NCBI RefSeq assembly: GCF_058153355.1 | Contig: NZ_CM177019.1 | Strand: one strand, 5' to 3' | DNA length: 64,000 bases | Shown: one piece after another, positions 4,998 through 40,634 of the stretch | Layout of the letters: each line of letters begins with the position of its first letter | How positions within the stretch are numbered: position 1 is the stretch's first letter | The notes under the pieces: model-generated | What the model was told of the DNA's origin: nothing | What the model saw: the letters and a program-made list of their open reading frames with translations, nothing else | Database searches by the model: none | Position numbers and translations under genes: made by a program

Positions 4998-5013
4998 GAG
5001 TTGAGGTTTGGTT

Positions 5014-5948: not shown

Positions 5949-5964
5949 TTTCTGGAAGCTAAAC

Positions 5965-7815: not shown

Positions 7816-7816
7816 T

Positions 7817-8152
7817 ATGCCAAAGATTGTTATTTTGCCTCATCAGGATCTCTGTCCTGATGGCGCTGTTCTGGAAGCGAATAGCGGTGAAACCATTCTC
7901 GACGTTGCGCTGCGTAACGGCATCGAGATTGAACACGCCTGTGAAAAATCCTGTGCTTGCACCACCTGCCACTGCATCGTTCGTGAAGGTTTTGATTCGC
8001 TGCCGGAAAGCTCAGAGCAGGAAGACGACATGCTGGACAAAGCCTGGGGGCTGGAGCCGGAAAGCCGTTTAAGCTGCCAGGCGCGCGTTACCGACGAAGA
8101 TTTAGTGGTCGAAATTCCGCGTTACACTATCAACCATGCGCGTGAGCATTAA
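7817..8152 (+). CDS. fdx: [2Fe-2S] ferredoxin Fdx
   Basis: 111-aa ORF with Cys cluster ([12 protein letters not shown] ... C). Confidence 0.95.
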
Positions 8153-8163
8153 CAGAGGTTAGT

Positions 8164-8364
8164 ATGGGACTTAAGTGGACCGATAGCCGCGAAATTGGCG
8201 AAGCACTGTACGATGCATATCCCGATCTTGATCCGAAAACGGTTCGATTCACCGATATGCATCAGTGGATTTGCGATCTGGAAGATTTCGACGACGACCC
8301 GCAGGCGTCCAACGAGAAAATCCTCGAAGCGATTTTATTAGTCTGGCTGGACGAAGCCGAGTGA
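8164..8364 (+). CDS. iscX: Fe-S assembly protein IscX
   Basis: 66-aa acidic ORF at the expected position after fdx. Confidence 0.9.
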
Positions 8365-8369
8365 TTTCC

Positions 8370-8500
8370 GCGTCATGCTTCACGCCGCAGATGCGTTGGC
8401 TGCGCTCGTTCACCCCAGTCACATAGTTATCTATGCTCCTGGGGCTTCACTCACTTGCCGCCTTCCTGCAACGCGAATCATTTAGCGGAAAAATCCTGGG
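8370..8500. repeat. ERIC/IRU element (enterobacterial repetitive intergenic consensus)
   Basis: cgttcaccccagtcacatagttatctatgctcctggggcttcac plus flanking cacgccgcagatgcgttggctgcgctc match the ERIC imperfect palindrome as recalled; lies in the iscX–pepB spacer. Confidence 0.55.
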
Positions 8501-8541
8501 GCTGCCAACTGGCGGCCCTTTTACAAATAAGGATAACTAAA

Positions 8542-9825
8542 ATGACAGAAGCGATGAAGATTACCCACTCGACCCAACCTGCCGACGCGCGCTGGGGAGA
8601 AAAAGCGACTTACAGCATTAATAATGATGGTATTACCCTGCATTTGAACGGGGCAGACGATCTGGGGCTGATCCAGCGTGCGGCGCGCAAGATTGACGGT
8701 CTGGGTATCAAGCATGTTCAGCTAAGCGGTGAAGGCTGGGATGCGGATCGTTGCTGGGCATTCTGGCAAGGTTACAAAGCCCCGAAAGGCACGCGTAAAG
8801 TGGAGTGGCCGGATCTGGACGATGCCCAGCGTCAGGAACTGGATAACCGCCTGATGATCATCGACTGGGTGCGTGACACCATCAACGCACCAGCAGAAGA
8901 ACTGGGGCCATCGCAACTGGCACAGCGTGCTGTTGATCTGATCAGCAACGTCGCAGGCGATCGTGTGACTTACCGGATCACCAAAGGTGAAGATCTTCGT
9001 GATCAAGGTTATATGGGGCTGCACACTGTCGGGCGTGGTTCAGAACGTTCCCCGGTATTGCTGGCGCTGGATTACAACCCAACTGGCGATAAAGAAGCGC
9101 CGGTGTACGCGTGCCTGGTAGGTAAAGGCATCACCTTTGATTCCGGCGGCTACAGCATCAAACAGACCGCGTTTATGGACTCAATGAAGTCTGACATGGG
9201 CGGTGCGGCAACGGTTACCGGGGCGCTGGCATTTGCCATTACGCGCGGTCTGAACAAGCGTGTGAAGCTGTTCCTCTGCTGTGCGGATAACCTGATTAGC
9301 GGCAACGCGTTCAAACTGGGGGATATCATTACCTATCGCAACGGTAAAAAAGTCGAAGTCATGAACACCGATGCGGAAGGGCGTCTGGTTCTGGCAGATG
9401 GCCTGATTGACGCCAGTGCGCAGAAACCGGAACTGATTATCGATGCCGCGACACTCACCGGTGCGGCGAAAACCGCGCTGGGTAATGATTATCACGCGCT
9501 GTTCAGTTTTGACGATGCATTGGCCGGTCGCCTACTGGAGAGTGCCGCCCAGGAGAACGAACCGTTCTGGCGTCTGCCGCTGGCGGAGTTCCACCGTAGC
9601 CAGCTGCCATCTAACTTTGCGGAACTGAACAATACCGGAAGCGCGGCGTATCCGGCGGGTGCAAGTACGGCGGCGGGCTTCCTGTCGCACTTTGTTGAGA
9701 ACTATAAACAAGGTTGGCTGCATATCGACTGTTCGGCGACTTACCGTAAAGCACCGGTTGAACAGTGGTCTGCGGGTGCGACCGGGCTGGGTGTGCGCAC
9801 GATTGCTAATCTGTTAACGGCGTAA
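8542..9825 (+). CDS. pepB: peptidase B (M17 leucyl aminopeptidase family) PepB
   Basis: Conserved start [10 protein letters not shown] at 8542 (427 aa); M17 motif NTDAEGRL present. Confidence 0.9.
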
Positions 9826-9833
9826 ACTAATAT

Positions 9834-9935
<102 letters not shown>

Positions 9936-9967
9936 GTGCCCCGAACGTTGAATGAATTGTGGTTCTT

Positions 9968-10744
9968 ATGTCCGAAACAAAAAACGAACTTGAAGACCTG
10001 CTGGAAAAAGCAGCAACCGAACCGGCGCACCGCCCGGCCTTTTTCCGTACTCTACTGGAATCCACTGTCTGGGTACCAGGTACGGCGGCGCAGGGCGAGG
10101 CAGTGGCTGAAGATAGCGCGCTTGATTTACAGCACTGGGAAAAAGAAGACGGTACTAGCGTCATTCCTTTTTTCACCTCGTTAGAAGCACTGCAACAGGC
10201 GGTCGACGGCGAACAGGCGTTTGTCGTAATGCCCGTTCGCACACTGTTTGAGATGACCCTTGGCGAAACGCTCTTCCTTAATGCCAAATTGCCAACCGGT
10301 AAAGAGTTTATGCCGCGTGAAATCAGTTTGTTGATTGGTGAAGAAGGAAATCCGCTGAGCAGTCAGGAAGTACTGGAAGGCGGTGAATCGCTGATATTAT
10401 CGGAAGTCGCAGAGCCGCCAGCACAAATGATTGATTCACTTACCACCTTATTTAAAACCATTAAGCCGGTGAAGCGTGCTTTTATTTGTTCAATTAAAGA
10501 GAACGAAGAGGCACAGCCTAATTTACTTATTGGCATTGAAGCCGATGGCGATATCGAAGAAATTATTCAGGCGGCGGGAAGTGTAGCGACCGATACATTA
10601 CCTGGTGATGAACCAATAGATATTTGCCAGGTGAAAAAAGGGGAAAAAGGAATTAGCCACTTTATTACCGAACATATTGCGCCATTCTATGAACGTCGCT
10701 GGGGTGGATTCCTGCGTGATTTTAAACAGAATCGAATAATTTAA
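9968..10744 (+). CDS. sseB: SseB (enhanced serine sensitivity protein B)
   Basis: ATG at 9968 gives 258 aa MSETKNELEDLL...; matches remembered SseB N-terminus and K-12 synteny. Confidence 0.8.
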   Translation: MSETKNELEDLLEKAATEPAHRPAFFRTLLESTVWVPGTAAQGEAVAEDSALDLQHWEKEDGTSVIPFFTSLEALQQAVDGEQAFVVMPVRTLFEMTLGETLFLNAKLPTGKEFMPREISLLIGEEGNPLSSQEVLEGGESLILSEVAEPPAQMIDSLTTLFKTIKPVKRAFICSIKENEEAQPNLLIGIEADGDIEEIIQAAGSVATDTLPGDEPIDICQVKKGEKGISHFITEHIAPFYERRWGGFLRDFKQNRII

Positions 10745-10779
10745 AATATGCCGCCCCAAAGGGCGGCATTCGGGCTTAC

Positions 10780-11190
10780 TTGCTGTTCTGAAGGTTGTTA
10801 ACCATCAGTAAATTGTTGCCGGAGGGACTCCGGTTATTATTTACTTCGGAAAACAGCGCACCAGAAACAATAAGTACGATACAGAAGTACCGTATCTTCA
10901 TTGTGCGGTCCATGCGAAGACCGCATCACGACAGCACCACTGGCGATATTGCCGCGATAGCAAGCGCTGAGACGCGCTTGCCCTAACGGTCGCGGAACAT
11001 CCTTTCCTTAAGCCAGCGCCCGCTTGCGAGACGGCGGAAAGGGCCACAGTGGATAATACACTAACAGAACAATAATAACTCTCTTTTGCTTGACAGAAAG
11101 AGAGTTACTGGCGAGTATTGTCTTCGCTGAGACGCGCTTGCATTACTACGGTAATACAACCTGCTGGAAAGGCCGCGAACCAGACCAGCA
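10780..11190. ncRNA. candidate ryfA-family small-RNA locus (strand and ends unresolved)
   Basis: ~490-nt non-coding spacer between sseB and sseA with several strong stem-loops (e.g. 11-bp stem at 11076..11107) and an exact 17-nt repeat (10965..10981 and 11125..11141). In K-12 an sRNA (ryfA) is, to my recollection, annotated between sseA and sseB. Confidence 0.3.
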
Positions 11191-11222
11191 ATAAAAAACC
11201 GCCAAATTCGGCGGTTTTTTAT
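11191..11222. terminator. bidirectional rho-independent terminator
   Basis: aaaaaaccgccaaattcggcggtttttt: GC stem flanked by an A-run and a T-run, immediately 3' of sseA (minus strand). Confidence 0.7.
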
Positions 11223-11236
11223 TGCCTGTAAAAAGC

Positions 11237-12082
11237 TTATTTCTCTGGCTCAACCGGTAAATCGGCCCGTGCGCCCCATTCACTCCATGCGCCGTCGTAT
11301 AGTTTCACGTTTGGCACATCCAGCGTCGCGAGTGCTAACAAAACCACGGCTGCCGTTACACCAGAACCGCAACTGACGATAATTGGTTTGTCGTAGCTGA
11401 CACCGCGACCAAAAAATATCGCATCCAGTTCATCGGTCGTTTTTAGTTCGCCTTCTCGTACTAGTTCTGTTCACGGAACGTTCAACGCGCCGGGAATGTG
11501 CCCGCGACGTAAACCTGGGCGAGGTTCATCAACTTCTGCATTAAAACGTGCAGCCGGGCGGGCATCAATAATTTGCGCCGTATTTTCATGGCTTGCCAAT
11601 AACACATCGGTTACTTTCACCACAGCCTCAGGATTAAACGCAGCGTTAAACTCACCTTCTGGCAGCGCTACTGCACCTTCTTCTAATAGCAGATCATCAC
11701 GCTGCCAGCCTGCAAGTCCACCACCCAGAATCGACACTTTCTCTACACCAAAGGTGCGCAGCATCCACCATGCGCGTGGGGCTGAGAAAAGATTACCTTC
11801 GTCATAGACAATCAGGTGCTTATCCTGGTTAACGCCTAACTCACGCATTGCAACGGCGAACGTTTCCGGGCGCGGCAGCATGTGCGGAAGCGGGGAATTG
11901 TGATCAGAAAGCGTTTCGATATCGAAAAACACTGCGCCGGGAATATGTCCATTCAGATACTCCTGGGCAACGTTACGATCTTCCTGTCCAGGCGGTGCCA
12001 TGCGGGCATCGATAATCTGAATTTCCGGGTCATCAATATGTTCGGCGAGCCAGTCGGCTCCTACAAACCATGTCGTGGACAT
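11237..12082 (-). pseudogene. sseA: 3-mercaptopyruvate sulfurtransferase SseA, interrupted by an in-frame TGA
   Basis: ORF stops at TGA (complement of 11471..11473) after ...HIPGALNVP. The same frame continues without further stops for 77 codons (TELVREGELKTTDELDAIFFGRGVSYDKPIIVSCGSGVTAAVVLLALATLDVPNVKLYDGAWSEWGARADLPVEPEK*), including the rhodanese active-site CGSGVT. Confidence 0.8.
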
Positions 12083-12287
12083 AGGCATCTCCATTTTTGC
12101 CGGGTTAGGCTAAATTGTCGGATGTTTAGTGAAAAGCGACAAGCAAAAGAGGCTGATTTGGCTGTCTGAGCCACAATTCTCACTAAAATTCGGATTCCAT
12201 GGGCGCGATACTGAATTACATAACGTAAATTCTCACGCATAATAATTATTCGACGTTGCTAACGGGCCATTGTGGCAGGGATGAAAA

Positions 12288-15200
12288 ATGAAAAAGTTAC
12301 GCGTAGCCGCCTGCATGCTAATGCTGGCGCTGGCAGGGTGCGACAACAACGATAACGCGCCAACAGCGGTGAAAAAAGATGTACCTTCTGAAGTTACTAA
12401 AGCGGCATCTTCAAAAAATGCGAGTTCAGCAAAACTCTCTGCACCGGAGCGACAAAAACTGGCACAACAGAGTGCCGGTAAGGCGCTGACATTGCTGGAT
12501 CTCTCTGAAGTCCAACTCGATGGCGCAGCCACGCTGGTGCTGACCTTCTCTATCCCTCTCGACCCGGATCAGGATTTCTCGCGCGTTATTCACGTCGTTG
12601 ATAAAAAAAGCGGCAAAGTGGATGGGGCCTGGGAGCTGTCAGATAATCTTAAAGAGCTGCGTTTACGCCACCTCGAGCCGAAACGTGATTTGATCGTTAC
12701 TATTGGCAAGGAGGTCAAGGCACTCAACAACGCAACCTTCAGTAAAGATTACGAAAAAACTATAACTACCCGCGATATCCAGCCCAGCGTCGGTTTTGCC
12801 AGCCGTGGTTCGCTGCTGCCTGGAAAAGTCATTGAAGGGCTGCCGGTAATGGCGCTCAATGTTAACAATGTCGATGTTAACTTCTTCCGTGTTAAGCCAG
12901 AATTTCTGCCAGCATTTATTAGCCAATGGGAATACCGAAATTCGCTGGCGAACTGGCAGTCAGACAAACTGCTGCAAATGGCGGATCTGGTTTATACCGG
13001 ACGTTTTGATCTCAATCCTGCGCGTAACACCCGTGAAAAATTATTGCTGCCGCTGGGTGATATCAAACCGCTTCAGCAGGCGGGTGTGTATCTGGCTGTG
13101 ATGAATCAGGCTGGACGTTACGATTACAGTAATCCCGCGACGCTGTTTACATTAAGTGATATCGGCGTATCGGCCCACCGTTATCACAATCGTCTGGATA
13201 TCTTTACCCAAAGCCTGGAAAACGGCGCGGCCCAGCAAGGAGTTGAAGTCTCATTATTAAATGAGAAAGGGCAGACTCTGACTCAGGCAACCAGTGATGC
13301 CCAGGGGCATGTGCAGCTGGAAAATGATAAAAACGCGGCATTACTGTTGGCGCGTAAAGACGGTCAGACAACGCTACTCGATTTAAAACTTCCGGCGCTG
13401 GACTTAGCAGAATTTAACATTGCTGGCGCGCCAGGCTATAACAAACAGTTTTTCATGTTTGGCCCGCGCGATCTTTATCGCCCGGGTGAAACAGTCATCC
13501 TTAATGGTTTATTGCGTGATGCAGACGGTAAAGCGTTGCCCGATCAACCCATCAAGCTGGACGTAATTAAACCCGACGGGCAGGTACTCAGGAGCGTCGT
13601 TAGTCAGCCGGAGAATGGCCTCTATCACTTTACCTGGCCACTCGATAGTAATGCGGCCACCGGCATGTGGCATATCCGAGCCAACACGGGCGATAACCAG
13701 TATCGGATGTGGGATTTCCACGTCGAAGATTTTATGCCAGAGCGCATGGCGCTGAATCTGACCGGTGAGAAAACCCCGCTAACGCCGAAAGATGAAGTGA
13801 AATTCTCCGTGGTGGGTTACTACCTGTACGGGGCGCCTGCTAATGGTAATACTTTGCAAGGGCAACTTTTCCTGCGCCCACTGCGTGAAGCTGTGTCAGC
13901 CTTACCTGGTTTCGAATTCGGCGATATAGCTGCTGAAAACCTTTCGCGCACGCTGGATGAAGTTCAGTTGACGCTGGATGATAAAGGGCGCGGCGAAGTT
14001 TCTACAGAAAGCCAGTGGAAGGAAACGCATTCCCCATTACAGGTTATTTTCCAGGGCAGTTTGCTGGAGTCTGGCGGTCGCCCGGTGACGCGCCGTGCTG
14101 AGCAGGCTATCTGGCCTGCCGATGCATTGCCGGGGATCCGTCCGCAATTCGCCTCGAAATCGGTTTACGATTATCGCACTGACAGTACGGTAAAACAGCC
14201 CATTGTTGATGAAGGCAGTAACGCCGCTTTTGACATCGTTTATAGCGATGCACAGGGCGTGAAAAAAGCTGTGTCTGGCTTACAAGTGCGCCTGATTCGC
14301 GAACGCCGCGATTACTACTGGAACTGGTCAGAAGATGAAGGCTGGCAGTCACAGTTTGATCAAAAAGATCTGATCGAAAATGAACAAACACTGGATCTTC
14401 AGGCTGATGAAACCGGTAAAGTCAGTTTCCCGGTAGAGTGGGGCGCTTATCGTCTGGAAGTCAAAGCGCCGAATGAAGCGGTCAGTAGTGTGCGTTTCTG
14501 GGCTGGCTATAGCTGGCAGGACAATAGCGACGGTAGCGGTGCTGTGCGACCAGACCGTGTCACGCTGAAACTGGATAAAGCCAGTTATCGCCCTGGTGAT
14601 ACCATTAAGTTGCACATTGCCGCGCCAACGGCGGGTAAAGGCTATGCGATGGTCGAGTCCAGTGAAGGGCCGCTGTGGTGGCAGGAGATTGATGTTCCAG
14701 CACAAGGGCTGGATCTGACGATTCCGGTCGATAAAACCTGGAATCGTCATGATCTTTATTTAAGTACGCTGGTGGTACGTCCTGGCGATAAATCCCGCTC
14801 CGCGACGCCAAAACGCGCAGTTGGCGTGTTGCATTTGCCGCTTGGCGATGAAAACCGTCGTCTCGATCTGGCGCTGGAAACTCCAGCGAAAATACGCCCC
14901 AATCAGCCATTAACCGTGAAAATTAAAGCCAGCAATAAAAATGGTGAGATGCCAAAACAGGTGAATGTGCTGGTGTCTGCGGTTGATAGCGGTGTGTTGA
15001 ATATTACTGATTATGTCACGCCAGATCCGTGGCAGGCATTCTTTGGTCAGAAACGCTATGGCGCAGATATTTACGATATTTACGGTCAGGTCATTGAAGG
15101 TCAGGGGCGTCTGGCAGCTCTGCGTTTTGGTGGCGATGGTGATGAACTGAAACGCGGTGGTAAACCGCCAGTAAATCACGTCAATATTGTTGCGCAACAG

Positions 15201-17249
15201 GCGCTACCGGTAACACTCAACGAACAGGGCGAAGGCACGGTTACATTGCCGATTGGTGATTTTAACGGTGAATTGCGCGTCATGGCACAAGCATGGACAG
15301 CAGATGATTTCGGTAGCAACGAAAGCAAAGTGGTTGTTGCCGCACCGGTGATAGCAGAACTGAACATGCCGCGCTTTATGGCCAGCGGTGACACCTCACG
15401 TCTGACGCTGGATATCACTAATCTTACCGATAAACCGCAAAAACTGAACGTTGCTCTGACCGCCAGTGGCTTGCTTGAACTGGTTAGCGATTCACCCGCA
15501 GCCGTTGAATTAGCGCCGGGCGTGCGAACCACGCTGTTTATCCCGGTGCGAGCATTGCCGGGTTATGGTGATGGTGAAATTCAGGCCACTATCAGCGGGT
15601 TAGCGTTACCGGGTGAAACCGTTGCCGATCAGCATAAGCAGTGGAAAATGGGTGTCCGTCCGGCATTTCCGGCACAAACCGTCAATTACGGTACGGCGTT
15701 GCAGCCTGGTGAGACATGGGCGATTCCAGCTGATGGATTGCAAAACTTCTCGCCTGTTACGCTGGAAGGGCAATTGTTGTTGAGCGGCAAACCACCGTTG
15801 AATATTGCACGTTATATCAAAGAGTTAAAAGCGTATCCGTACGGTTGTCTGGAGCAAACCGCCAGCGGCCTGTTCCCGTCACTTTACACCAACGCAGCCC
15901 AACTGCAGGCGTTGGGAATCAAAGGCGACAGTGATGAGAAGCGCCGTGCGGCAGTCGATATCGGCATTTCTCGTTTACTGCAAATGCAACGTGATAACGG
16001 TGGCTTTGCGCTGTGGGATAAAAACGGTGATGAAGAGTACTGGCTGACGGCTTACGTGATGGATTTCCTGGTCCGCGCAGGTGAGCAGGGTTACAGCGTG
16101 CCGACAGAAGCCATTAACCGGGGGAATGAGCGTCTACTGCGCTATTTACAAGATCCGGGCATGATGTCGATTCCGTATGCGGATAATCTCAAAGCCAGTA
16201 AATTCGCCGTACAGTCTTACGCTGCGCTGGTGCTGGCCCGTCAGCAAAAGGCACCGCTGGGTGCGCTGCGTGAAATCTGGGAGCATCGTGCCGATGCTGC
16301 GTCTGGATTACCGCTGCTGCAACTTGGCGTTGCGCTGAAAACCATGGGCGATGCAACGCGTGGTGAAGAAGCGATTGTGCTGGCGCTGAAAACGCCGCGC
16401 AATAGTGATGAGCGGATATGGCTGGGTGATTACGGTAGTCCACTGCGCGACAACGCATTGATGCTCTCCTTGCTGGAAGAGAACAAATTGCTACCCGATG
16501 AGCAGTACCCTCTGCTGAACACACTTTCGCAGCAGGCGTTCGGTGAACGCTGGTTATCAACTCAGGAAAGTAACGCGCTGTTCCTGGCTGCCCGTACGAT
16601 TCAGGATTTACCGGGCAAATGGCAGGCGCAAACGTCTTTCTCTGCTGAGCTGCTGACAGGTGAGAAAGCGCAAACCAGCAATCTGAATAGCGATCAACTT
16701 GCCACCTTACAGGTGACCAACAGTGGCGATCAGCCGTTATGGCTGCGTGTGGATGCCAGCGGATATCCGCAATCCGCCCCTTTACCGGCGAGCAATGTGC
16801 TGCAAATCGAGCGCCATATTCTTGGCACTGACGGTAAGAGCAAATCGCTGGATTCGTTACGTAGCGGCGATCTGGTACTGGTCTGGTTGCAGGTCAAAGC
16901 CAGTAACAGCGTGCCGGATGCTTTGGTCGTTGATTTACTGCCTGCGGGCCTGGAACTGGAAAACCAGAACCTGGCTAACGGCAGCGCCAGCCTGGAGCAA
17001 AGTGGTAGCGAAGTGCAAAACCTACTCAGTCAAATGCAACAAGCGAACATTAAGCATATTGAGTTTCGTGACGATCGCTTTGTGGCGGCGGTTGCCGTTG
17101 ATGAATATCAACCAGTCACGCTGGTGTATCTGGCGCGGGCGGTAACGCCGGGAACATACAATGTTCCGCAACCAATGGTGGAATCGATGTATGTTCCCCA
17201 CTGGCGGGCGACTGGCGCGGCTGAAGATCTGTTGATTGTCAGACCGTAA
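12288..17249 (+). CDS. yfhM: alpha-2-macroglobulin family lipoprotein YfhM (ECAM)
   Basis: 1653-aa ORF with lipobox (LALAGC) and thioester motif CLEQ (GCLEQTAS); intact. Confidence 0.9.
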   Translation: MKKLRVAACMLMLALAGCDNNDNAPTAVKKDVPSEVTKAASSKNASSAKLSAPERQKLAQQSAGKALTLLDLSEVQLDGAATLVLTFSIPLDPDQDFSRVIHVVDKKSGKVDGAWELSDNLKELRLRHLEPKRDLIVTIGKEVKALNNATFSKDYEKTITTRDIQPSVGFASRGSLLPGKVIEGLPVMALNVNNVDVNFFRVKPEFLPAFISQWEYRNSLANWQSDKLLQMADLVYTGRFDLNPARNTREKLLLPLGDIKPLQQAGVYLAVMNQAGRYDYSNPATLFTLSDIGVSAHRYHNRLDIFTQSLENGAAQQGVEVSLLNEKGQTLTQATSDAQGHVQLENDKNAALLLARKDGQTTLLDLKLPALDLAEFNIAGAPGYNKQFFMFGPRDLYRPGETVILNGLLRDADGKALPDQPIKLDVIKPDGQVLRSVVSQPENGLYHFTWPLDSNAATGMWHIRANTGDNQYRMWDFHVEDFMPERMALNLTGEKTPLTPKDEVKFSVVGYYLYGAPANGNTLQGQLFLRPLREAVSALPGFEFGDIAAENLSRTLDEVQLTLDDKGRGEVSTESQWKETHSPLQVIFQGSLLESGGRPVTRRAEQAIWPADALPGIRPQFASKSVYDYRTDSTVKQPIVDEGSNAAFDIVYSDAQGVKKAVSGLQVRLIRERRDYYWNWSEDEGWQSQFDQKDLIENEQTLDLQADETGKVSFPVEWGAYRLEVKAPNEAVSSVRFWAGYSWQDNSDGSGAVRPDRVTLKLDKASYRPGDTIKLHIAAPTAGKGYAMVESSEGPLWWQEIDVPAQGLDLTIPVDKTWNRHDLYLSTLVVRPGDKSRSATPKRAVGVLHLPLGDENRRLDLALETPAKIRPNQPLTVKIKASNKNGEMPKQVNVLVSAVDSGVLNITDYVTPDPWQAFFGQKRYGADIYDIYGQVIEGQGRLAALRFGGDGDELKRGGKPPVNHVNIVAQQALPVTLNEQGEGTVTLPIGDFNGELRVMAQAWTADDFGSNESKVVVAAPVIAELNMPRFMASGDTSRLTLDITNLTDKPQKLNVALTASGLLELVSDSPAAVELAPGVRTTLFIPVRALPGYGDGEIQATISGLALPGETVADQHKQWKMGVRPAFPAQTVNYGTALQPGETWAIPADGLQNFSPVTLEGQLLLSGKPPLNIARYIKELKAYPYGCLEQTASGLFPSLYTNAAQLQALGIKGDSDEKRRAAVDIGISRLLQMQRDNGGFALWDKNGDEEYWLTAYVMDFLVRAGEQGYSVPTEAINRGNERLLRYLQDPGMMSIPYADNLKASKFAVQSYAALVLARQQKAPLGALREIWEHRADAASGLPLLQLGVALKTMGDATRGEEAIVLALKTPRNSDERIWLGDYGSPLRDNALMLSLLEENKLLPDEQYPLLNTLSQQAFGERWLSTQESNALFLAARTIQDLPGKWQAQTSFSAELLTGEKAQTSNLNSDQLATLQVTNSGDQPLWLRVDASGYPQSAPLPASNVLQIERHILGTDGKSKSLDSLRSGDLVLVWLQVKASNSVPDALVVDLLPAGLELENQNLANGSASLEQSGSEVQNLLSQMQQANIKHIEFRDDRFVAAVAVDEYQPVTLVYLARAVTPGTYNVPQPMVESMYVPHWRATGAAEDLLIVRP

Positions 17250-19551
17250 ATGCCTCGCCTGTTAACCAAACGCGGCTGCTGGATCACGCTGGCAGCTGCG
17301 CCCTTTCTCCTTTTTTTTGCCGCGTGGGGAGCAGATAAACTCTGGCCCCTGCCATTGCATGAAGTCAATCCCGCACGCGTAGTCGTGGCGCAGGATGGTA
17401 CGCCACTCTGGCGTTTCGCCGATGCTGAGGGCATCTGGCGCTATCCGGTAACCATCGAAGATGTCTCTCCGCGTTACCTTGAAGCACTGATCAATTATGA
17501 AGATCGCTGGTTCTGGAAGCATCCGGGGGTGAATCCATTCTCGGTGGCGCGCGCAGCATGGCAAGATCTCACTTCGGGACGGGTTATTTCCGGCGGCAGC
17601 ACACTCACCATGCAGGTTGCTCGTCTGCTTGATCCTCACCCCAAAACTTTTGGCGGCAAAATTCGCCAGCTCTGGCGCGCGTTTCAACTGGAATGGCACT
17701 TGTCTAAACGTGACATTCTGACCTTGTATCTTAATCGCGCTCCGTTTGGTGGTACGTTGCAGGGGATCGGTGCGGCAAGCTGGGCATATCTCGGAAAATC
17801 GCCTGCGAATTTAAGCTATTCCGAGGCGGCAATGTTAGCGGTGTTACCGCAAGCGCCCAGCCGACTGCGTCCGGATCGCTGGCCGGAACGTGCCGAGGCC
17901 GCACGTAATAAAGTGCTCAATCGGATGGCTGCGCAAGGTGTGTGGTCCCGTGAGCAGGTAAAAGAATCTAGTGAAGAGCCCATCTGGTTGGCACCCCGAC
18001 AAATGCCGCAACTGGCACCGCTGTTTTCGCGAATGATGCTCGGTAAAAGTAAAAGCGACAAAATCGTTACTACGCTGGATGCTGGTTTACAGCGTCGTCT
18101 GGAAGAACTGGCGCAAAACTGGAAAGGACGATTGCCACCGCGCAGTTCGTTGGCAATGATCGTTGTTGATCATACTGATATGAGTGTGCGCGGCTGGGTA
18201 GGATCGGGATGATTCCCGCTTTGGGCATGTCGATATGGTCAATGCGATCCGATCGCCGGGATCGGTACTCAAACCGTTTGTTTATGGTCTGGCGCTGGAT
18301 GAAGGCTTGATCCACCCTGCATCGCTGTTGCAAGACGTTCCCCGGCGCACTGGTGATTATCGACCAGGCAACTTTGACAGCGGTTTTCATGGCCCGATCA
18401 GCATGAGTGAGGCGCTGGTGCGCTCGCTGAATTTACCTGCTGTGCAGGTGCTGGAAGCCTATGGACCGAAACGGTTTGCGGCAAAGTTACGCAATGTTGG
18501 ATTGCCGTTATATTTGCCCAACGGTGCTGCACCGAATCTTTCGCTCATTCTCGGCGGCGCAGGTGCAAAACTGGAGGATATGGCTGCAGCGTATACCGCA
18601 TTTGCTCGCCACGGTAAGGCGGGTAAGTTGCGCTTACAGCCGGGGGACCCATTACTTGAGCGACCGTTAATGTCGCCGGGGGCCGCGTGGATTATCCGCC
18701 GAATTATGGCAGATGAAGCGCAGCCGCTTCCGGATGGCGCTTTGCCACGCGTCGTACCACTGGCGTGGAAAACAGGAACCAGTTATGGCTATCGCGATGC
18801 ATGGGCTATTGGCGTTAACGCTCGTTACGTAATTGGGATCTGGACTGGCAGACCGGACGGTACGCCCGTTGTCGGTCAGTTTGGCTTTGCCAGCGCCGTA
18901 CCGCTGTTGAATCAGGTCAATAATATCTTACTGTCGCGCAGTGCGAATCTGCCGGAAGACCCGCGTCCTGATTCTGTAAGCCGTGGCGTTATCTGCTGGC
19001 CGGGTGGGCAATCATTGCCAGAAGGTGACAGTAATTGCCGCCGTCGTCTTGCCACCTGGTTGCTCGAAGGTAGCCAGCCACCAACATTACTTTTACCGGA
19101 GCAGGAAGGAATAAGTGGGATTCGTTTCCCCATCTGGCTTGATGAGCAAGGTAAACGTGTTGCTGCTGATTGTCCTCAGGCTCGACAAGAAATGATTAAT
19201 GTCTGGCCATTACCACTTGAACCCTGGCTACCTGCTGCTGAACGACGAGCAGCGCGCTTACCTGGGGCATCAACAAATTGCCCGCCGTATGGTCGTGATG
19301 CTCAGGTACCTTTACAGTTGATTGGTGTGCGTAATGGCGTAATTATCAAACGTCTGCCAGGAGCTACTGATGCGTCATTACCAGTACAATTAAGCGGAGG
19401 AACAGGCGAACGCTGGTGGTTTCTTAATGGTGAACCGTTAGCTGAACGCGGGCGTAACGTGACTCTGCATTTGACAGAGAAAGGCGATTATCAATTACTG
19501 GTAATGGACGAAATGGGGCAGGTCGCGACGGTGAGATTTGTCATGCAGTAG
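17250..19551 (+). pseudogene. pbpC: penicillin-binding protein 1C (PbpC) split by a frameshift
   Basis: Two adjacent ORFs in different frames: 17250..18212 (transglycosylase GT51 domain, EDRWFWKHPGVNP) and 18235..19551 (transpeptidase, SPGSVLKP SxxK motif). The second frame read upstream gives ...DDSRFGHVDMVN back to a stop at 18199..18201, so the shift lies in 18199..18213. Confidence 0.8.
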
Positions 19552-19699
19552 TCTGTTTTGCCATGCTTTGTTGCTTAAACTCGGTTTATTTTAAAAAAAT
19601 GTTACCTTCATCAATAGTCAACGGCCCTGTTGCTCATTATAATCCGCGCCATCTCGTACGCTGGTACAGACAACAACAGAATAATTTACAGAGGTAAAA

Positions 19700-20131
19700 A
19701 TGGCTATTGAACGTACTTTTTCCATCATCAAACCGAACGCGGTAGCAAAAAACGTCATTGGCAATATCTTTGCGCGCTTTGAAGCTGCAGGGTTCAAAAT
19801 TGTCGGCACCAAAATGCTGCACCTGACCGTTGAACAGGCTCGTGGCTTTTATGCTGAACACGATGGAAAACCGTTCTTTGATGGTCTGGTTGAATTCATG
19901 ACCTCTGGCCCGATCGTGGTTTCCGTGCTGGAGGGTGAAAACGCCGTTCAGCGTCACCGCGATCTGCTGGGCGCGACCAATCCGGCAAACGCACTGGCCG
20001 GTACTCTGCGTGCTGATTACGCTGACAGCCTGACCGAAAATGGTACCCACGGTTCTGATTCCGTCGAATCTGCCGCTCGCGAAATCGCTTATTTCTTCGG
20101 CGAAGGCGAAGTGTGCCCGCGCACCCGTTAA
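19700..20131 (+). CDS. ndk: nucleoside diphosphate kinase
   Basis: 143-aa [18 protein letters not shown]... with catalytic His motif (NGTHGSDS). Confidence 0.95.
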
Positions 20132-20280
20132 TAATTTCGTAAATGCCGCGTGCAAACGTGGCATCCGTGCGCCAGAATTTGTACAATGCAGCGCCCCCGG
20201 ACGAGCAGCCGCTCACCGGGGCGTTTCTTTTTTCAACCCTCCAGGGGCCATAACGTGTAATAACGAGGCCGGAATAGCAT

Positions 20281-21435
20281 ATGTCTGAACAATTAGTCAC
20301 ACCTGAAAACGTCACCACGAAAGATGGAAAAATCAACCTGCTGGATCTCAACCGTCAGCAGATGCGGGAGTTTTTTAAAGATTTAGGTGAAAAACCCTTC
20401 CGCGCCGATCAGGTGATGAAGTGGATGTATCACTATTGCTGCGACAACTTTGATGAGATGACCGACATCAACAAAGTGTTGCGCGGCAAGCTGAAAGAGG
20501 TGGCGGAAATCCGCGCACCGGAAGTGGTTGAAGAACAGCGTTCATCTGACGGCACCATTAAATGGGCGATTGCCGTTGGCGATCAGCGCGTCGAAACGGT
20601 GTATATCCCGGAAGACGACCGCGCCACGCTCTGCGTCTCTTCGCAGGTGGGGTGTGCGCTGGAGTGTAAATTCTGTTCCACCGCCCAGCAGGGCTTTAAC
20701 CGCAACCTGCGGGTATCGGAAATTATCGGCCAGGTGTGGCGTGCGGCGAAAATCGTCGGCGCAGCAAAAGTCACCGGTCAGCGCCCAATCACTAACGTCG
20801 TGATGATGGGTATGGGCGAGCCGCTGCTCAACCTAAACAATGTCGTTCCGGCGATGGAAATCATGTTGGATGACTTTGGTTTTGGTCTGTCTAAACGTCG
20901 CGTGACGCTTTCCACTTCCGGTGTAGTTCCGGCGCTGGATAAACTGGGCGATATGATCGACGTAGCGCTGGCAATTTCCCTGCACGCGCCGAACGACGAA
21001 ATTCGTGACGAAATTGTGCCGATCAACAAAAAGTACAATATCGAAACGTTCCTTGCTGCGGTGCGCCGCTATCTGGAGAAATCTAACGCCAATCAGGGCC
21101 GAGTCACTATTGAATACGTGATGCTTGATCACGTTAACGACGGCACTGAACACGCGCACCAACTGGCGGAGCTGCTGAAAGATACGCCGTGTAAGATCAA
21201 CCTGATCCCGTGGAACCCGTTCCCTGGCGCGCCGTATGGACGCAGCTCAAACAGTCGTATCGACCGTTTCTCTAAAGTGCTGATGAGCTACGGTTTCACC
21301 ACTATTGTGCGTAAAACTCGTGGTGATGATATCGATGCTGCCTGTGGTCAGTTGGCGGGCGATGTTATCGACCGTACGAAACGTACCCTGCGTAAACGAA
21401 TGCAGGGTGAGGCCATCGACATTAAAGCGGTCTGA
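20281..21435 (+). CDS. rlmN: 23S rRNA/tRNA m2A methyltransferase RlmN (radical SAM)
   Basis: 384-aa ORF with radical-SAM Cys motif (CALECKFC). Confidence 0.95.
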
Positions 21436-21443
21436 TAGCCATT

Positions 21444-21482
21444 ACGCCACGGTTACTTTATGTACCGTGGCGTAATCTTTTA
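21444..21482 (+). terminator. rho-independent terminator after rlmN
   Basis: Inverted repeat ttacgccacggt...accgtggcgtaa followed by a T-rich tract. Confidence 0.5.
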
Positions 21483-21719
21483 TGAATGAAGTATTAAGTT
21501 GCAATTGTCTGGTCAATATTAACGGTGCGTTTTTGCTGACTTTAAGGCAGTATGTAACGATGCAACAGTAAGTTAGCCTTAGTGAATGTGGGCTTTGTCA
21601 CGAGCACACAGACGGTCTTATACTGTATGATAACGGTTAACTTAACGGATGTTTCGCGGTGTGGGTGAGCATGATGGTTCACCGGCATCTCAATTCTCAT
21701 TTAAACGTACCTGCAGCGA

Positions 21720-22733
21720 ATGAATACTGAAGCCACGCACGACCAAAATGAAGCACTTACTACCGGCGCTCGCCTGCGTAATGCTCGCGAACAACTAGGA
21801 CTTAGTCAGCAGGCCGTTGCTGAGCGACTTTGCCTGAAGGTTTCCACGGTACGCGACATTGAAGAAGATAAGGCACCTGCCGATCTTGCTTCAACATTCC
21901 TGCGCGGATATATCCGCTCTTATGCGCGTCTGGTACATATTCCAGAAGAAGAACTGCTACCGGGGCTGGAAAAACAGGCTCCACTACGAGCTGCAAAAGT
22001 TGCGCCGATGCAGAGTTTTTCCCTCGGTAAACGCCGCAAAAAACGTGACGGCTGGCTGATGACCTTCACCTGGCTGGTGTTGTTTGTGGTTATTGGCCTG
22101 AGCGGTGCCTGGTGGTGGCAAGACCACAAAGCTCAGCAGGAAGAGATCACTACTATGGCCGATCAATCTTCTGCGGAACTGAGCAGTAATAACGAACAGG
22201 GGCAGAGTGTTCCGTTAGATACGTCGACAACCACAGACCCGACTACGACGTCCACGCCGCCAGCGTCTGTGGATACTACCGCAACTAACACGCAAACACC
22301 TGCCATAACTTCGCCAGCACCAGCTGTTGATTCACAACAGAATGCAGTTGTTTCACCTTCGCAGGCAAATGTTGATACCGCTGCGACCCCGGCACCAACG
22401 GCAACAACAACGCCAGATGGTGCTGCGCCGTTGCCAACCGATCAGGCTGGCGTGACCACGCCGGCGGTTGACCCGAATGCGTTGGTGATGAACTTTACTG
22501 CCGATTGCTGGCTGGAAGTCACTGACGCTACCGGTAAAAAACTGTTTAGCGGTATGCAGCGTAAAGACGGTAATTTGAACTTAACCGGCCAGGCTCCGTA
22601 CAAACTGAAAATTGGTGCGCCAGCCGCAGTACAGATCCAGTATCAAGGGAAACCTGTCGATCTGAGTCGTTTTATCAGAACTAACCAGGTTGCGCGTCTG
22701 ACCCTAAATGCCGAACAATCACCGGCGCAGTAA
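21720..22733 (+). CDS. rodZ: cytoskeleton protein RodZ
   Basis: 337-aa ORF: N-terminal HTH, one TM segment, Pro/Thr-rich linker, C-terminal domain. Confidence 0.9.
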
Positions 22734-22759
22734 CAGACGGGTAACGCGGGAGATTTTTC

Positions 22760-23878
22760 ATGCATAACCAGGCTCCAATTCAACGTAGAAAATCAACACG
22801 TATTTACGTTGGGAATGTGCCGATTGGCGATGGTGCCCCCATCGCCGTACAGTCCATGACCAATACGCGTACGACAGACGTCGAAGCTACGGTCAATCAA
22901 ATTAAGGCGCTGGAACGTGTTGGCGCTGATATCGTCCGTGTCTCCGTACCGACGATGGACGCGGCAGAAGCGTTCAAGCTCATCAAACAACAGGTTAACG
23001 TACCGCTGGTGGCTGATATCCACTTTGACTATCGCATTGCGCTGAAAGTAGCGGAATACGGGGTCGATTGTTTGCGTATTAACCCTGGCAATATCGGTAA
23101 TGAAGAGCGTATTCGCATGGTGGTTGACTGCGCGCGCGATAAAAACATTCCGATCCGTATTGGCGTTAACGCTGGATCGCTGGAAAAAGATCTGCAAGAA
23201 AAGTATGGCGAACCGACGCCGCAGGCGTTGCTGGAATCTGCCATGCGTCATGTTGATCATCTCGATCGCCTGAACTTCGATCAGTTCAAAGTCAGCGTGA
23301 AAGCGTCTGACGTCTTCCTCGCTGTTGAGTCTTATCGTTTGCTGGCAAAACAGATCGATCAACCGCTGCATCTTGGGATCACCGAAGCGGGTGGCGCACG
23401 TAGTGGGGCAGTAAAATCTGCCATTGGTTTAGGCCTGCTGCTGTCTGAAGGCATCGGCGACACGCTGCGCGTATCGCTGGCGGCCGATCCGGTCGAAGAG
23501 ATCAAAGTCGGTTTCGATATTTTGAAATCGCTGCGTATCCGTTCGCGCGGGATCAACTTCATCGCCTGCCCGACCTGTTCGCGTCAGGAGTTTGACGTTA
23601 TCGGTACGGTTAACGCCCTGGAGCAACGCCTGGAAGATATCATCACCCCGATGGACGTTTCGATTATCGGCTGCGTGGTGAATGGACCAGGTGAGGCGCT
23701 GGTTTCTACACTCGGCGTTACCGGCGGCAACAAGAAAAGCGGCCTCTATGAAGATGGCGTGCGCAAAGACCGTCTGGACAACAACGATATGATCGACCAG
23801 CTGGAAGCGCGCATTCGTGCGAAAGCCAGCCAACTGGATGAAGCGCGTCGAATTGACGTTCAGCAGGTTGAAAAATAA
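22760..23878 (+). CDS. ispG: HMBPP synthase IspG (GcpE)
   Basis: 372-aa ORF with Cys motif (CPTCSR) of the [4Fe-4S] enzyme. Confidence 0.95.
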
Positions 23879-23879
23879 T

Positions 23880-23975
23880 AACGTGATGGGAAGCGCTTCG
23901 CTTCCCGTGTATGATTGAACCCGCATGGCTCCCGAAATATTGAGGGGCGCGTTGAGGGTTCATTTTTATATTCAG
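23880..23975 (+). ncRNA. candidate 3'-UTR-derived sRNA (SroE-like) in the ispG–hisS spacer
   Basis: Stem-loop gggaagcgcttcgcttccc directly after the ispG stop. An sRNA from the gcpE–hisS spacer is recalled from K-12; not verifiable from sequence alone. Confidence 0.3.
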
Positions 23976-23988
23976 AAAGAGAATAAAC

Positions 23989-25263
23989 GTGGCAAAAAAC
24001 ATTCAAGCCATTCGCGGCATGAACGATTACCTGCCTGGCGAAACGGCCATCTGGCAGCGCATTGAAGGCACACTGAAAAACGTGCTCGGCAGCTACGGTT
24101 ACAGTGAAATCCGCTTGCCGATTGTAGAGCAGACCCCGCTATTCAAACGTGCGATTGGTGAAGTCACCGACGTGGTTGAAAAAGAGATGTACACCTTTGA
24201 GGATCGCAATGGCGACAGCCTGACCCTGCGCCCTGAAGGGACGGCGGGCTGTGTACGCGCCGGCATCGAGCATGGTCTTCTGTACAATCAGGAACAGCGT
24301 CTGTGGTATATCGGGCCGATGTTCCGTCACGAGCGTCCGCAGAAAGGGCGTTATCGTCAGTTCCACCAGTTGGGCTGCGAAGTTTTCGGTCTACAAGGTC
24401 CTGATATCGACGCTGAACTGATTATGCTCACCGCCCGCTGGTGGCGTGCGCTGGGTATCTCTGAACACGTAACTCTTGAGCTGAACTCTATCGGTTCGCT
24501 GGAAGCACGCGCCAATTATCGCGATGCGCTGGTTGCATTCCTTGAGCAGCATAAAGAAAAACTGGACGAAGACTGCAAACGCCGCATGTACACTAACCCG
24601 TTGCGCGTGCTGGATTCCAAAAATCCGGAAGTGCAGGCCCTTCTCAACGACGCCCCAGCATTAGGTGACTATCTTGACGAGGAATCTCGTGAGCACTTTG
24701 CTGGTCTGTGCAAACTGCTGGAGAGCGCGGGTATCGCTTACACCGTAAACCAGCGTCTGGTGCGTGGTCTGGACTACTATAACCGTACTGTTTTTGAGTG
24801 GGTGACTAACAGCCTCGGTTCCCAGGGCACCGTGTGCGCAGGCGGTCGTTATGACGGTCTGGTGGAACAACTGGGTGGTCGTGCAACACCGGCAGTCGGT
24901 TTCGCGATGGGCCTCGAACGTCTTGTATTGTTAGTTCAGGCCGTTAATCCGGAATTTAAAGCCGATCCTGTTGTCGATATATATCTGGTGGCTTCAGGTG
25001 CTGACACACAATCTGCGGCTATGGCATTAGCAGAGCGTCTGCGTGATGAATTACCGGGCGTGAAACTGATGACCAACCACGGCGGCGGCAACTTTAAGAA
25101 GCAGTTTGCCCGTGCTGATAAATGGGGCGCCCGCGTTGCTGTGGTGCTGGGTGAGTCTGAAGTGGCTAACGGCACAGCAGTAGTGAAGGATTTGCGCTCT
25201 GGTGAGCAAACGGCAGTTGCGCAGGATAGTGTAGCCGCGCATTTGCGCACGTTACTGGGTTAA
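23989..25263 (+). CDS. hisS: histidyl-tRNA synthetase
   Basis: 424-aa ORF (GTG start), class II aaRS motifs. Confidence 0.95.
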
Positions 25264-25280
25264 GGAAGGAGAAGGACAGC

Positions 25281-25901
25281 GTGGAAATTTACGAGAACGA
25301 AAACGACCAGGTTGAAGCGGTTAAACGCTTTTTTGCTGAAAATGGCAAAGCACTGGCTGTTGGGGTGATTTTGGGCGTTGGCGCATTGATTGGCTGGCGC
25401 TACTGGAACAGCCATCAGGTTGATTCTACACGCTCCGCTTCTCTTGCCTATCAAAATGCGGTTACCGCAGTGAGCGAAGGCAAACCGGATAGCATCCCGG
25501 CGGCGGAAAAATTTGCTGCTGAAAATAAAAATACCTATGGTGCGCTGGCTTCTTTGGAACTTGCGCAGCAATTTGTTGACAAAAATGAACTAGAGAAAGC
25601 TGCCACCCAGTTACAACAGGGATTGGCGGACACGAGCGATGAAAATCTCAAAGCCGTGATAAATCTGCGTCTTGCCCGCGTTCAGGTACAGCTCAAGCAG
25701 GCTGATGCCGCGCTGAAAACCCTCGATACCATCAAAGGTGAAGGGTGGGCTGCCATTGTTGCCGACCTGCGTGGCGAAGCATTGCTGAGCAAAGGTGATA
25801 AGCAAGGTGCGCGTAGTGCATGGGAAGCTGGCGTGAAAAGCGATGTTACCCCGGCACTGAGCGAAATGATGCAGATGAAAATTAATAATTTGTCCATCTG
25901 A
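25281..25901 (+). CDS. yfgM: TPR-like membrane protein YfgM
   Basis: 206-aa ORF with N-terminal TM helix; K-12 synteny. Confidence 0.85.
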   Translation: MEIYENENDQVEAVKRFFAENGKALAVGVILGVGALIGWRYWNSHQVDSTRSASLAYQNAVTAVSEGKPDSIPAAEKFAAENKNTYGALASLELAQQFVDKNELEKAATQLQQGLADTSDENLKAVINLRLARVQVQLKQADAALKTLDTIKGEGWAAIVADLRGEALLSKGDKQGARSAWEAGVKSDVTPALSEMMQMKINNLSI

Positions 25902-25911
25902 GAGGGACCCG

Positions 25912-27090
25912 ATGCAATTGCGTAAATTACTGCTGCCAGGACTGCTTTCCGTTACCCTTTTAAGCGGCTGTTCGCTGTTTAACAGCGAAGAAGATGTGGT
26001 AAAGATGTCCCCATTGCCGACCGTTGAAAACCAGTTTACGCCGACCACGGCGTGGAGCACTTCCGTGGGTAGCGGCATTGGCAACTTCTATTCCAATCTT
26101 CATCCGGCACTGGCGGACAACGTTGTCTATGCAGCAGACCGCGCTGGTTTAGTAAAAGCGCTGAATGCGGATGATGGCAAAGAAATCTGGTCTGTCAGTC
26201 TGGCCGAGAAAGATGGCTGGTTCTCTAAAGAGCCTGCATTACTTTCTGGCGGCGTGACCGAGTCTGGCGGACATGTCTACATTGGTAGCGAAAAGGCGCA
26301 GGTTTACGCGCTGAATACCAGCGATGGTACTGTGGCATGGCAAACTAAAGTCGCGGGTGAAGCGCTTTCTCGCCCGGTGGTCAGCGACGGTCTGGTGTTA
26401 ATCCACACCAGTAACGGTCAGTTGCAAGCCCTGAACGAAGCTGACGGCGCTGTCAAATGGACAGTTAACCTCGATATGCCTTCACTCTCTTTGCGTGGCG
26501 AGTCTGCGCCAGCAACGGCTTTTGGTGCGGCCGTCGTGGGTGGCGATAATGGTCGCGTCAGCGCAGTGCTAATGGAACAGGGCCAGATGATTTGGCAGCA
26601 GCGTATTTCCCAGGCGACCGGTTCTACCGAAATTGACCGCCTGAGCGATGTTGACACGACTCCCGTCATTGTTAACGGCGTTGTTTTCGCGCTGGCCTAT
26701 AATGGTAACCTGACGGCGCTTGATCTGCGCAGCGGTCAGATTATGTGGAAGCGCGAACTGGGTTCGGTGAATGATTTCATCGTCGACGGCAACCGCATCT
26801 ATCTGGTCGATCAAAATGACCGGGTGATGGCGTTGACCATTGATGGCGGCGTTACGCTGTGGACACAAAGCGATCTGCTGCATCGCCTGTTGACTTCTCC
26901 GGTGCTGTATAATGGCAACCTGGTGGTAGGTGACAGTGAAGGTTATCTGCACTGGATCAACGTCGAAGATGGTCGTTTCGTTGCCCAGCAAAAAGTTGAT
27001 AGCTCCGGTTTCCAGACTGAACCGGTTGCCGCTGACGGCAAACTGCTGATCCAGGCAAAAGACGGGACTGTGTACTCTATTACACGTTAA
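25912..27090 (+). CDS. bamB: outer-membrane assembly lipoprotein BamB
   Basis: 392-aa ORF with lipobox (LLSGC) and PQQ-like beta-propeller repeats. Confidence 0.95.
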   Translation: MQLRKLLLPGLLSVTLLSGCSLFNSEEDVVKMSPLPTVENQFTPTTAWSTSVGSGIGNFYSNLHPALADNVVYAADRAGLVKALNADDGKEIWSVSLAEKDGWFSKEPALLSGGVTESGGHVYIGSEKAQVYALNTSDGTVAWQTKVAGEALSRPVVSDGLVLIHTSNGQLQALNEADGAVKWTVNLDMPSLSLRGESAPATAFGAAVVGGDNGRVSAVLMEQGQMIWQQRISQATGSTEIDRLSDVDTTPVIVNGVVFALAYNGNLTALDLRSGQIMWKRELGSVNDFIVDGNRIYLVDQNDRVMALTIDGGVTLWTQSDLLHRLLTSPVLYNGNLVVGDSEGYLHWINVEDGRFVAQQKVDSSGFQTEPVAADGKLLIQAKDGTVYSITR

Positions 27091-27107
27091 TCGTCTCTGT
27101 CGTTCAC

Positions 27108-27150
27108 TTTGAAAACGGCTCCTGGACAGGGGCCGTTTTCCTGTTTTTAA
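27108..27150 (+). terminator. rho-independent terminator after bamB
   Basis: aaacggctcctggacaggggccgttttcctgttttt. Confidence 0.5.
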
Positions 27151-27207
27151 CAACGACACGAATATAGCGTGCGTTGTCTGATGATTTATAAAAATGAGGC
27201 TTTAAAC

Positions 27208-28680
27208 ATGGTACCTGTGGTCGCGCTTGTCGGGCGCCCTAACGTAGGAAAATCCACGTTATTTAACCGTCTAACTCGCACCCGAGATGCGCTGGTTGCG
27301 GATTTCCCGGGTCTGACTCGTGACCGTAAGTACGGTCGTGCGGAAATTGAAGGCCGCGAGTTTATTTGTATTGATACCGGCGGGATTGACGGAACAGAAG
27401 ACGGTGTAGAAACCCGCATGGCGGAACAGTCGCTGCTGGCGATTGAAGAAGCGGACGTCGTACTGTTTATGGTGGATGCGCGCGCGGGCCTGATGCCTGC
27501 GGATGAAGCGATTGCTAAACATCTGCGCTCCCGCGAAAAACCGACCTTCCTGGTGGCAAACAAAACCGATGGTCTGGATCCGGATCAGGCCGTTGTTGAT
27601 TTTTATTCGCTCGGTTTAGGTGAAATCTATCCTATCGCCGCGTCTCACGGTCGTGGCGTATTAAGTCTGCTGGAGCACGTGCTGTTGCCGTGGATGGAAG
27701 ATATCGCACCACAAGAAGAAGTGGATGAAGACGCTGAGTACTGGGCGCAATTTGAAGCGGAAGAGAACGGCGAAGAAGAAGAGGAAGACGACTTTGACCC
27801 GCAAAGTCTGCCAATCAAACTGGCGATAGTGGGTCGTCCTAACGTCGGTAAGTCTACACTCACTAACCGTATCCTTGGCGAAGAACGCGTCGTAGTTTAC
27901 GACATGCCGGGCACTACGCGTGACAGTATCTACATTCCAATGGAACGCGATGGGCGTGAGTATGTACTCATTGACACTGCGGGCGTACGTAAACGCGGCA
28001 AAATCACCGATGCGGTAGAGAAATTCTCCGTAATCAAAACATTGCAGGCGATTGAAGATGCCAACGTGGTGATGTTGGTGATTGATGCTCGCGAAGGTAT
28101 TTCCGATCAGGATCTCTCCCTGCTGGGCTTTATTCTCAATAGTGGGCGCTCACTTGTGATTGTAGTGAACAAGTGGGACGGCCTGAGCCAGGAAGTGAAA
28201 GAGCAAGTAAAAGAGACGCTGGACTTCCGTCTGGGCTTTATCGACTTCGCCCGTGTGCATTTTATCTCTGCATTACACGGCAGTGGCGTTGGTAATCTGT
28301 TTGAATCAGTGCGTGAAGCGTATGACAGCTCCACCCGTCGTGTGGGGACATCTATGCTGACGCGTATCATGACCATGGCGGTTGAAGATCACCAGCCGCC
28401 GCTGGTTCGCGGGCGTCGTGTGAAGCTGAAATATGCCCACGCCGGTGGTTACAATCCGCCGATTGTGGTGATTCACGGCAACCAAGTGAAAGACCTGCCT
28501 GATTCGTACAAACGCTACTTGATGAATTACTTCCGCAAGTCTCTGGACGTGATGGGTACGCCGATTCGTATTCAGTTCAAAGAAGGGGAAAACCCATATG
28601 CGAACAAGCGTAACACCCTGACGCCGACCCAGATGCGCAAGCGTAAGCGTTTGATGAAGCATATTAAGAAAAGTAAGTAA
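27208..28680 (+). CDS. der: ribosome-biogenesis GTPase Der (EngA)
   Basis: ATG at 27208 gives 490 aa; two G domains (GRPNVGKST twice) and a basic C-terminus. Confidence 0.95.
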
Positions 28681-28742
28681 TCACTTATCTGGTTTCCCTT
28701 TCCAAACGGAGAGGGAAACTGAACAACAGGCGAGGAGTATTT

Positions 28743-31342: not shown

Positions 31343-31391
31343 GGTCGGCGCCATGGCTGATCGGGCCACCGCTGAATATTAATCAAGGAGA

Positions 31392-40630: not shown

Positions 40631-40634
40631 TGAT

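Follow-up and report, generated by a model that had tools for sequence, protein, structure and literature searches.

A pbpC gene probably inactivated by a recent 11-bp deletion in one Escherichia coli isolate, next to an intact yfhM

The alpha2-macroglobulin encoded by yfhM and penicillin-binding protein 1c (PBP1c), encoded by pbpC, have been proposed to act together in defence and repair, an idea of Budd et al. (2004) which is restated in passages of PMC4498604 and PMC3328433. Those passages agree with the initial annotation of the locus described here, which had called the partnership a proposal, and we found no experimental test of the YfhM/PBP1c partnership in the literature. The yfhM product, ECAM, has been described as having a lipobox and a CxEQ thioester (PMC3328433). 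In standard laboratory culture, no role in peptidoglycan synthesis is known for PBP1c (PMC7554673, PMC6456298), and deletion of pbpC caused a growth defect at no pH tested (PMC6456298). A natural nonsense allele, pbpC Q246*, arose in S. Typhi isolates from gallbladder carriage (PMC7605710).

Here we describe this gene pair in a stretch of 64,000 nucleotides (the window) from contig NZ_CM177019.1 of RefSeq assembly GCF_058153355.1. We found that yfhM is intact while pbpC is divided over two reading frames, and comparison with intact alleles indicates that pbpC in this E. coli isolate is very probably a very recent, strain-private pseudogene which arose from a single 11-bp deletion.

The yfhM-pbpC junction and the deletion in pbpC

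The identities initially assigned to yfhM and pbpC were correct. The window's YfhM aligned to K-12 YfhM over its full length and without gaps at 97.9% identity (tblastn), and it contains the lipobox LAGC (Cys18) and the thioester motif CLEQ at 1187. Pfam assignments on an identical yfhM were bMG1, A2M_bMG2, bMG3, MG2, bMG5, bMG6, A2M_BRD and A2M. YfhM is accordingly a type I bacterial alpha2-macroglobulin, a class defined as lipoproteins of ~1650 aa with CxEQ and MG/A2M domains. The yfhM stop codon (TAA, 17247..17249) directly adjoins the pbpC ATG at 17250, which upholds the tight coupling originally described, and pbpC occupies the position which characterises PBP1c genes, immediately 3' of a thioester-type alpha2-macroglobulin gene, in the same order as in K-12. 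A promoter/terminator scan of 12000..19800 gave counts at the level of shuffled sequence (6 vs 6.6; 11 vs 8.9) and lends no independent support to operon boundaries. As yfhM lies upstream of pbpC, its coding sequence is untouched by the break and no polarity effect arises.

The ORF list and its translations divide pbpC into an ORF of 320 aa in frame 3 and an ORF of 438 aa in frame 1 (Table 1), and in a tblastn search with K-12 PbpC the match ran as far as 18206 in frame 3 with residues 1-319 and resumed at 18208 in frame 1 with residues 324-770, the change of frame lying at 18207/18208. The 320-aa ORF ends in GWVGSG, and its premature stop (TGA, 18210..18212) is two codons past the junction. 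Upstream of the ATG of the 438-aa ORF the second frame is open back to a TAG at 18199..18201, its translation there being DRDDSRFGHVDMVN (the frame-1 reading back to this TAG is also given as DRDDSRFGHVDM). Two halves in different frames, and a second frame open back to this stop, were thus both correctly described at the outset.

We aligned the window with the strains N96 and GN06156, which like K-12 are each annotated with a 770-aa pbpC in one frame, and found the lesion to be one gap, in which the window lacks the 11 bp TTGATCTTAAT at 18207 | 18208; the alignment with K-12 contains the same gap. A small lesion, net -2 or possibly +1, had been predicted within 18199..18213, with alignment to K-12 pbpC suggested as the means of sizing it; the junction falls within this interval, and a loss of 11 bp is congruent with net -2. 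The register of the deletion is unique, and direct reading of the alignment revealed no microhomology at its ends. Returning the 11 bp to the window produces a 770-aa ORF with exactly the DNA sequence that pbpC has in the closest relative, GCA_015332025.1. When 17000..19700 was compared by megablast with 5,426 complete E. coli genomes, 5,425 gave matches, and the best 30 of these each extended over 2,712 bp where the query has 2,701 bp, so the 11 bp are present in them. As the split is a deterministic feature of the sequence, chance is not at issue.

Table 1 Coordinates, within the window, of the pbpC fragments, yfhM and the other features discussed in the text.
Feature	Position	Strand	Description
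hscA private SNP	6341	+	C>T, P126L; Pro126 in K-12 and sister
sseA (3-mercaptopyruvate sulfurtransferase)	11240..12082	-	Private W204* (TGG>TGA); stop 11471..11473, SNP 11471
yfhM (ECAM, type I bacterial alpha2-macroglobulin)	12288..17249	+	Intact, 1653 aa
pbpC 5' fragment	17250..18212	+	319 native residues and Gly, then TGA; N-terminal anchor, complete GT51 domain, first transpeptidase strands
Deletion junction	18207..18208	+	11 bp TTGATCTTAAT absent, by comparison with intact alleles and K-12
pbpC 3' fragment	18208..19551	+	+1 frame; homology from 18208, first start ATG 18235 (438 aa); SVLK, SLN, KTG, BiPBP_C
sinH (intimin-like inverse autotransporter)	29150..31342		Within the extra segment between yfgJ and xseA
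BIg21/InvE_AD repeat adhesin, 2,696 aa	32500..40590		Within the extra segment between yfgJ and xseA

We also examined how far the window has diverged from K-12. The pbpC gene (17250..19551) has ~88% nucleotide identity to its K-12 counterpart, falling to 76% in one 300-bp window, with the strongest divergence at 18514..19413. Its dS against K-12 is 0.54 over the whole gene and reaches 0.73 in the 3' half, compared to 0.10-0.27 in flanking genes, and the allele was found at an identity of at least 95% in only 18 of 5,425 complete E. coli genomes. This suggests that the divergent pbpC either belongs to an old class of alleles or was imported from a distant Escherichia lineage. Between yfgJ and xseA (28743..42011) there are ~11.5 kb which are absent from K-12 and which contain sinH, the repeat adhesin and a 332-aa ORF; yfgJ (67.6% amino acid identity) and xseA (91.4%) are themselves far more diverged from K-12 than their neighbours. 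The segments of 1..51244 which are collinear with K-12 have 94-96% nucleotide identity to it, which we judge to be low for E. coli housekeeping regions, and a small group of ~18 genomes recurs as the source of the best complete-genome matches (98-99%). The window seems to belong to an uncommon and divergent lineage of E. coli.

Domains and motifs of the two pbpC fragments

We compared both ORFs to the NCBIfam equivalog model for PbpC, PRK11240 (NF008414), a family which also has the entry TIGR02073. The 320-aa ORF matched profile positions 1-319 with 656.5 bits and the 438-aa ORF matched positions 333-774 with 840.5 bits, the curated cutoff for the whole protein being 1121 bits; both fragments are PbpC-derived, neither is complete, and no single polypeptide qualifies as a whole PbpC. 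The 320-aa ORF contains the GT51 motifs EDRWFWKHPG at 84 (EDxxFxxHxG) and GGSTLTMQ at 115 (GGSTxTxQ), and the 438-aa ORF contains the transpeptidase motifs SVLK at 10 (SxxK), SLN at 64 (SxN) and KTG at 179. The full set of PBP1c catalytic motifs is therefore present, but it is distributed over two ORFs, and glycosyltransferase and transpeptidase do not lie on one membrane-anchored chain. Pfam assignments on identical genes from public contigs follow the same division: PF00912 (Transgly) only for the 320-aa ORF, and PF00905 (Transpeptidase) and PF06832 (BiPBP_C) for the 438-aa ORF.

SVLK occupies residues 10-13 of the 438-aa ORF, 22 residues past the break, in agreement with the initial placement of the break shortly before the SxxK motif. 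A sequence search of the PDB found no solved PBP1c, and the nearest structures were of PBP1a and PBP1b. When PbpC is aligned to PBP1a of P. aeruginosa (4oon), the break maps within the transpeptidase domain, where the first conserved strands precede it and the active-site serine follows 22 residues later.

Translated from its native start, the gene would yield a membrane-anchored fragment of 320 residues which contains the whole GT51 domain and lacks the transpeptidase catalytic motifs. For the 438-aa piece we found no start codon in frame 1 ahead of ATG 18235, no convincing ribosome-binding site on reading the sequence, and no signal or anchor sequence within the ORF, the N-terminus of which (MVNAIRSPGS) has no hydrophobic leader. 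As it has no export signal, this piece would be unable to reach the periplasm; even if made, it would presumably be cytoplasmic and useless for periplasmic cross-linking, and the bifunctional PBP1c would be lost.

GT51 domains can fold and act alone, as exemplified by 2oqo, a stand-alone PBP1a glycosyltransferase construct of 200 aa. This construct aligns to residues 61-240 of PbpC, wholly within the 320-aa ORF, and residues 62-228 of the fragment also align to the monofunctional family TIGR02070, although the score of 80.9 bits falls short of the cutoff for that family (182.65). With its anchor and a complete GT51 domain with motifs, the 320-aa fragment could retain glycosyltransferase activity, in which case the operon would encode YfhM and an anchored, GT-only enzyme, and the deletion would amount to the loss of a domain instead of a null allele. 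However, the fragment ends within the transpeptidase domain, which may leave an unfolded tail and lead to degradation, and the split arrangement was found in no sister isolate, so that there is no sign of its maintenance. We consider a partly functional product of this kind unlikely.

Private mutations and distribution of the break

We compared positions 1..59549 of the window to the sister isolates GCA_015332025.1 and SRR28786219, pieces of which jointly cover this interval and which are identical to each other across their 8,576-bp overlap. Exactly 3 differences were found: the pbpC deletion and the private SNPs in hscA and sseA (Table 1). K-12 and the sister have the ancestral state at hscA, sseA and pbpC, so all three changes are derived on the branch of the window isolate. 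The sseA change, C>T on the + strand, introduces a stop which precedes the CGSG active-site loop at 238 and thereby removes the catalytic Cys loop; the window's SseA matched only profile positions 1-203 of 281 in NCBIfam PRK11493, while an intact 281-aa sseA is present in K-12 and in both sister isolates examined. Judging by its sequence, sseA is another newly formed pseudogene, which lies across yfhM from the pbpC lesion at a distance of 6.7 kb.

The repaired pbpC has a dN/dS of 0.05 against K-12 in both halves, which indicates that purifying selection acted on the gene up to the time of the deletion and that the break is very recent. With a defined lesion of 11 bp and an intact gene in relatives from the same clone, pbpC has the properties of a recent unitary pseudogene. 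The ORF list and the K-12 alignment contained no sign of an IS element. Genome decay of the Shigella type was also considered and rejected, as the other 31 K-12 orthologues in 1..51 kb of the window are full length.

All three private changes are found within 11.9 kb (6341..18208) of the 59.5 kb compared, on either side of yfhM; all are protein-altering, two of them are presumably null alleles, and the two SNPs share both the change, C>T, and the strand. This leaves some room, beside plain drift, for selection or a local mutational episode, that is, for HscA P126L, SseA W204* and the pbpC deletion having been selected as losses or having arisen in a burst of strand-coordinated damage. However, three random points in 59.5 kb have a probability of ~0.10 of falling in so small a span (3r^2-2r^3, r=0.2), two SNPs are too few to define a spectrum, and a genome-wide mutator or a history of long passage fits the same data. 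To our knowledge no functional link exists among hscA, sseA and pbpC. The three changes could reflect an isolate with a mutator or a long history of passage, or a local cluster of mutations; selection or a local burst in particular seems to us improbable. The same low standing applies to the wider proposition that PBP1c has become a GT-only enzyme which still partners YfhM, that the three mutations represent a local burst or selection, or both.

We also examined how widespread the lesion is in public data, since the initial annotation had suggested surveying whether it is lineage-wide. The exact YfhM of the window is present on 14 public contigs; among the YfhM loci listed, three others have a 770-aa pbpC and the 320 + 438 split occurs only in Logan contig SRR31441161_12. 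This was also the one contig with the exact 320-aa fragment among 153 billion indexed gene positions, where the exact intact PbpC was found on 4 contigs of the clone. The clone's exact PepB is on 5 contigs and, separately, so is its exact 2696-aa adhesin. These 5 clone contigs match the sum of 4 intact copies and 1 broken copy, and the lesion is therefore private to one of five sampled clone members and is not lineage-wide. Two other look-ups were made: neither the 320-aa nor the 438-aa fragment is present, as an exact match, in a table of 15 billion clustered proteins, and the exact ppk product is found in ~90,000 index blocks, with a sister isolate at none of the ten places listed, whereas pepB and pdeF did lead to sister contigs.

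As just a single sample in the public index shows the lesion, it might be an artefact of sequencing or assembly in a genome which in reality has an intact 770-aa pbpC. The contigs of SRR31441161 in Logan, which is built from reads, are 100% identical to the window, including the junction and both private SNPs, and SRR31441161 in all likelihood represents the same isolate in an independent assembly of reads. The window's assembly may share reads with this sample; if so, the Logan match rules out an artefact of the assembler and not one at the level of the library. The loss of 11 bp in sequence which is neither repetitive nor homopolymeric would nevertheless be an atypical read or polishing error, and we regard an artefact as very unlikely.

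Programmed +1 (or -2) frameshifting, or reinitiation, which would rebuild a functional PBP1c, can be dismissed with near certainty: the frames overlap only in 18202..18209 (GAT CGG GA) and an AGGA a few bases 5' of the TGA superficially resembles the prfB site, but GGA TCG GGA TGA contains no slippery codon at which a tRNA could re-pair (as already noted from the sequence alone), the two-frame arrangement occurs neither in the sister contigs nor in any other genome inspected and so is not the conserved recoding site expected of a prfB-type +1 shift, and reinitiation would produce a C-terminal piece without an export signal.

A search for homologues of the 320-aa fragment returned truncated PbpC genes which lie within megabase contigs, among others of E. 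coli, S. enterica arizonae and further Enterobacteriaceae and of Pseudomonas; as the search yielded only proteins of at most 560 aa, many of which are ended by contig ends, it demonstrates recurrence qualitatively and gives no frequency. Sporadic loss of pbpC has thus already been seen elsewhere.

Meaning of the break and comparison with known systems

A recent, isolate-specific inactivation of pbpC by deletion, the reading we prefer, describes an ordinary mutation and no new biological arrangement. As no role of PBP1c in standard laboratory culture is known, a stray loss-of-function allele of pbpC is unremarkable, and the deletion may persist because, according to published work, the gene is not needed in standard laboratory culture. 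The combination of an intact yfhM and a broken pbpC had originally been described as a notable uncoupling of the pair. This description is unsupported: the lesion is in one of five clone members, on a branch of 3 mutations per 59.5 kb, and the break is too recent for yfhM to have decayed or for its retention to be demonstrated, so that no inference about functional independence of the two genes can be made. The intact yfhM beside a broken pbpC is a snapshot of a fresh mutation and has no evolutionary weight.

At most, the isolate is a natural pbpC-null (or GT-only) strain with isogenic wild-type sisters, SRR28786219 and GCA_015332025.1. The strain and its sisters are usable for testing the long-standing idea that YfhM and PBP1c cooperate in envelope defence, on which the lesion itself, being too young to have passed the filter of selection, says nothing. 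In annotation, the two pbpC ORFs are best joined and marked as a single pseudogene, and sseA calls for the same mark.

Among known systems, the 320-aa product resembles MtgA (TIGR02070) in having an N-terminal anchor and a single GT51 domain. By its sub-cutoff score it is not an MtgA orthologue, and unlike MtgA it is a truncated class A PBP with ~90 extra residues, which comprise a linker and a transpeptidase stub. The Q246* allele of S. Typhi is similar to the window allele in being a sporadic, isolate-private lesion in the N-terminal half of pbpC in a natural enterobacterial isolate. It differs in being a point nonsense mutation in another species, which was read as one element of a general degradation of genes in carriage, whereas the window has a frameshifting deletion.

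The closest comparison is with the yfhM-pbpC locus of K-12 (b2519), which has the same synteny (sseA <> yfhM-pbpC > ndk > rlmN) and the same abutment of stop and start codons. The repaired PbpC of the window and K-12 PBP1c are both 770 aa long, are 94.7% identical and both contain GT51, transpeptidase and BiPBP_C domains; unlike K-12 pbpC, the gene in the window is split at codon 320 by the 11-bp deletion.
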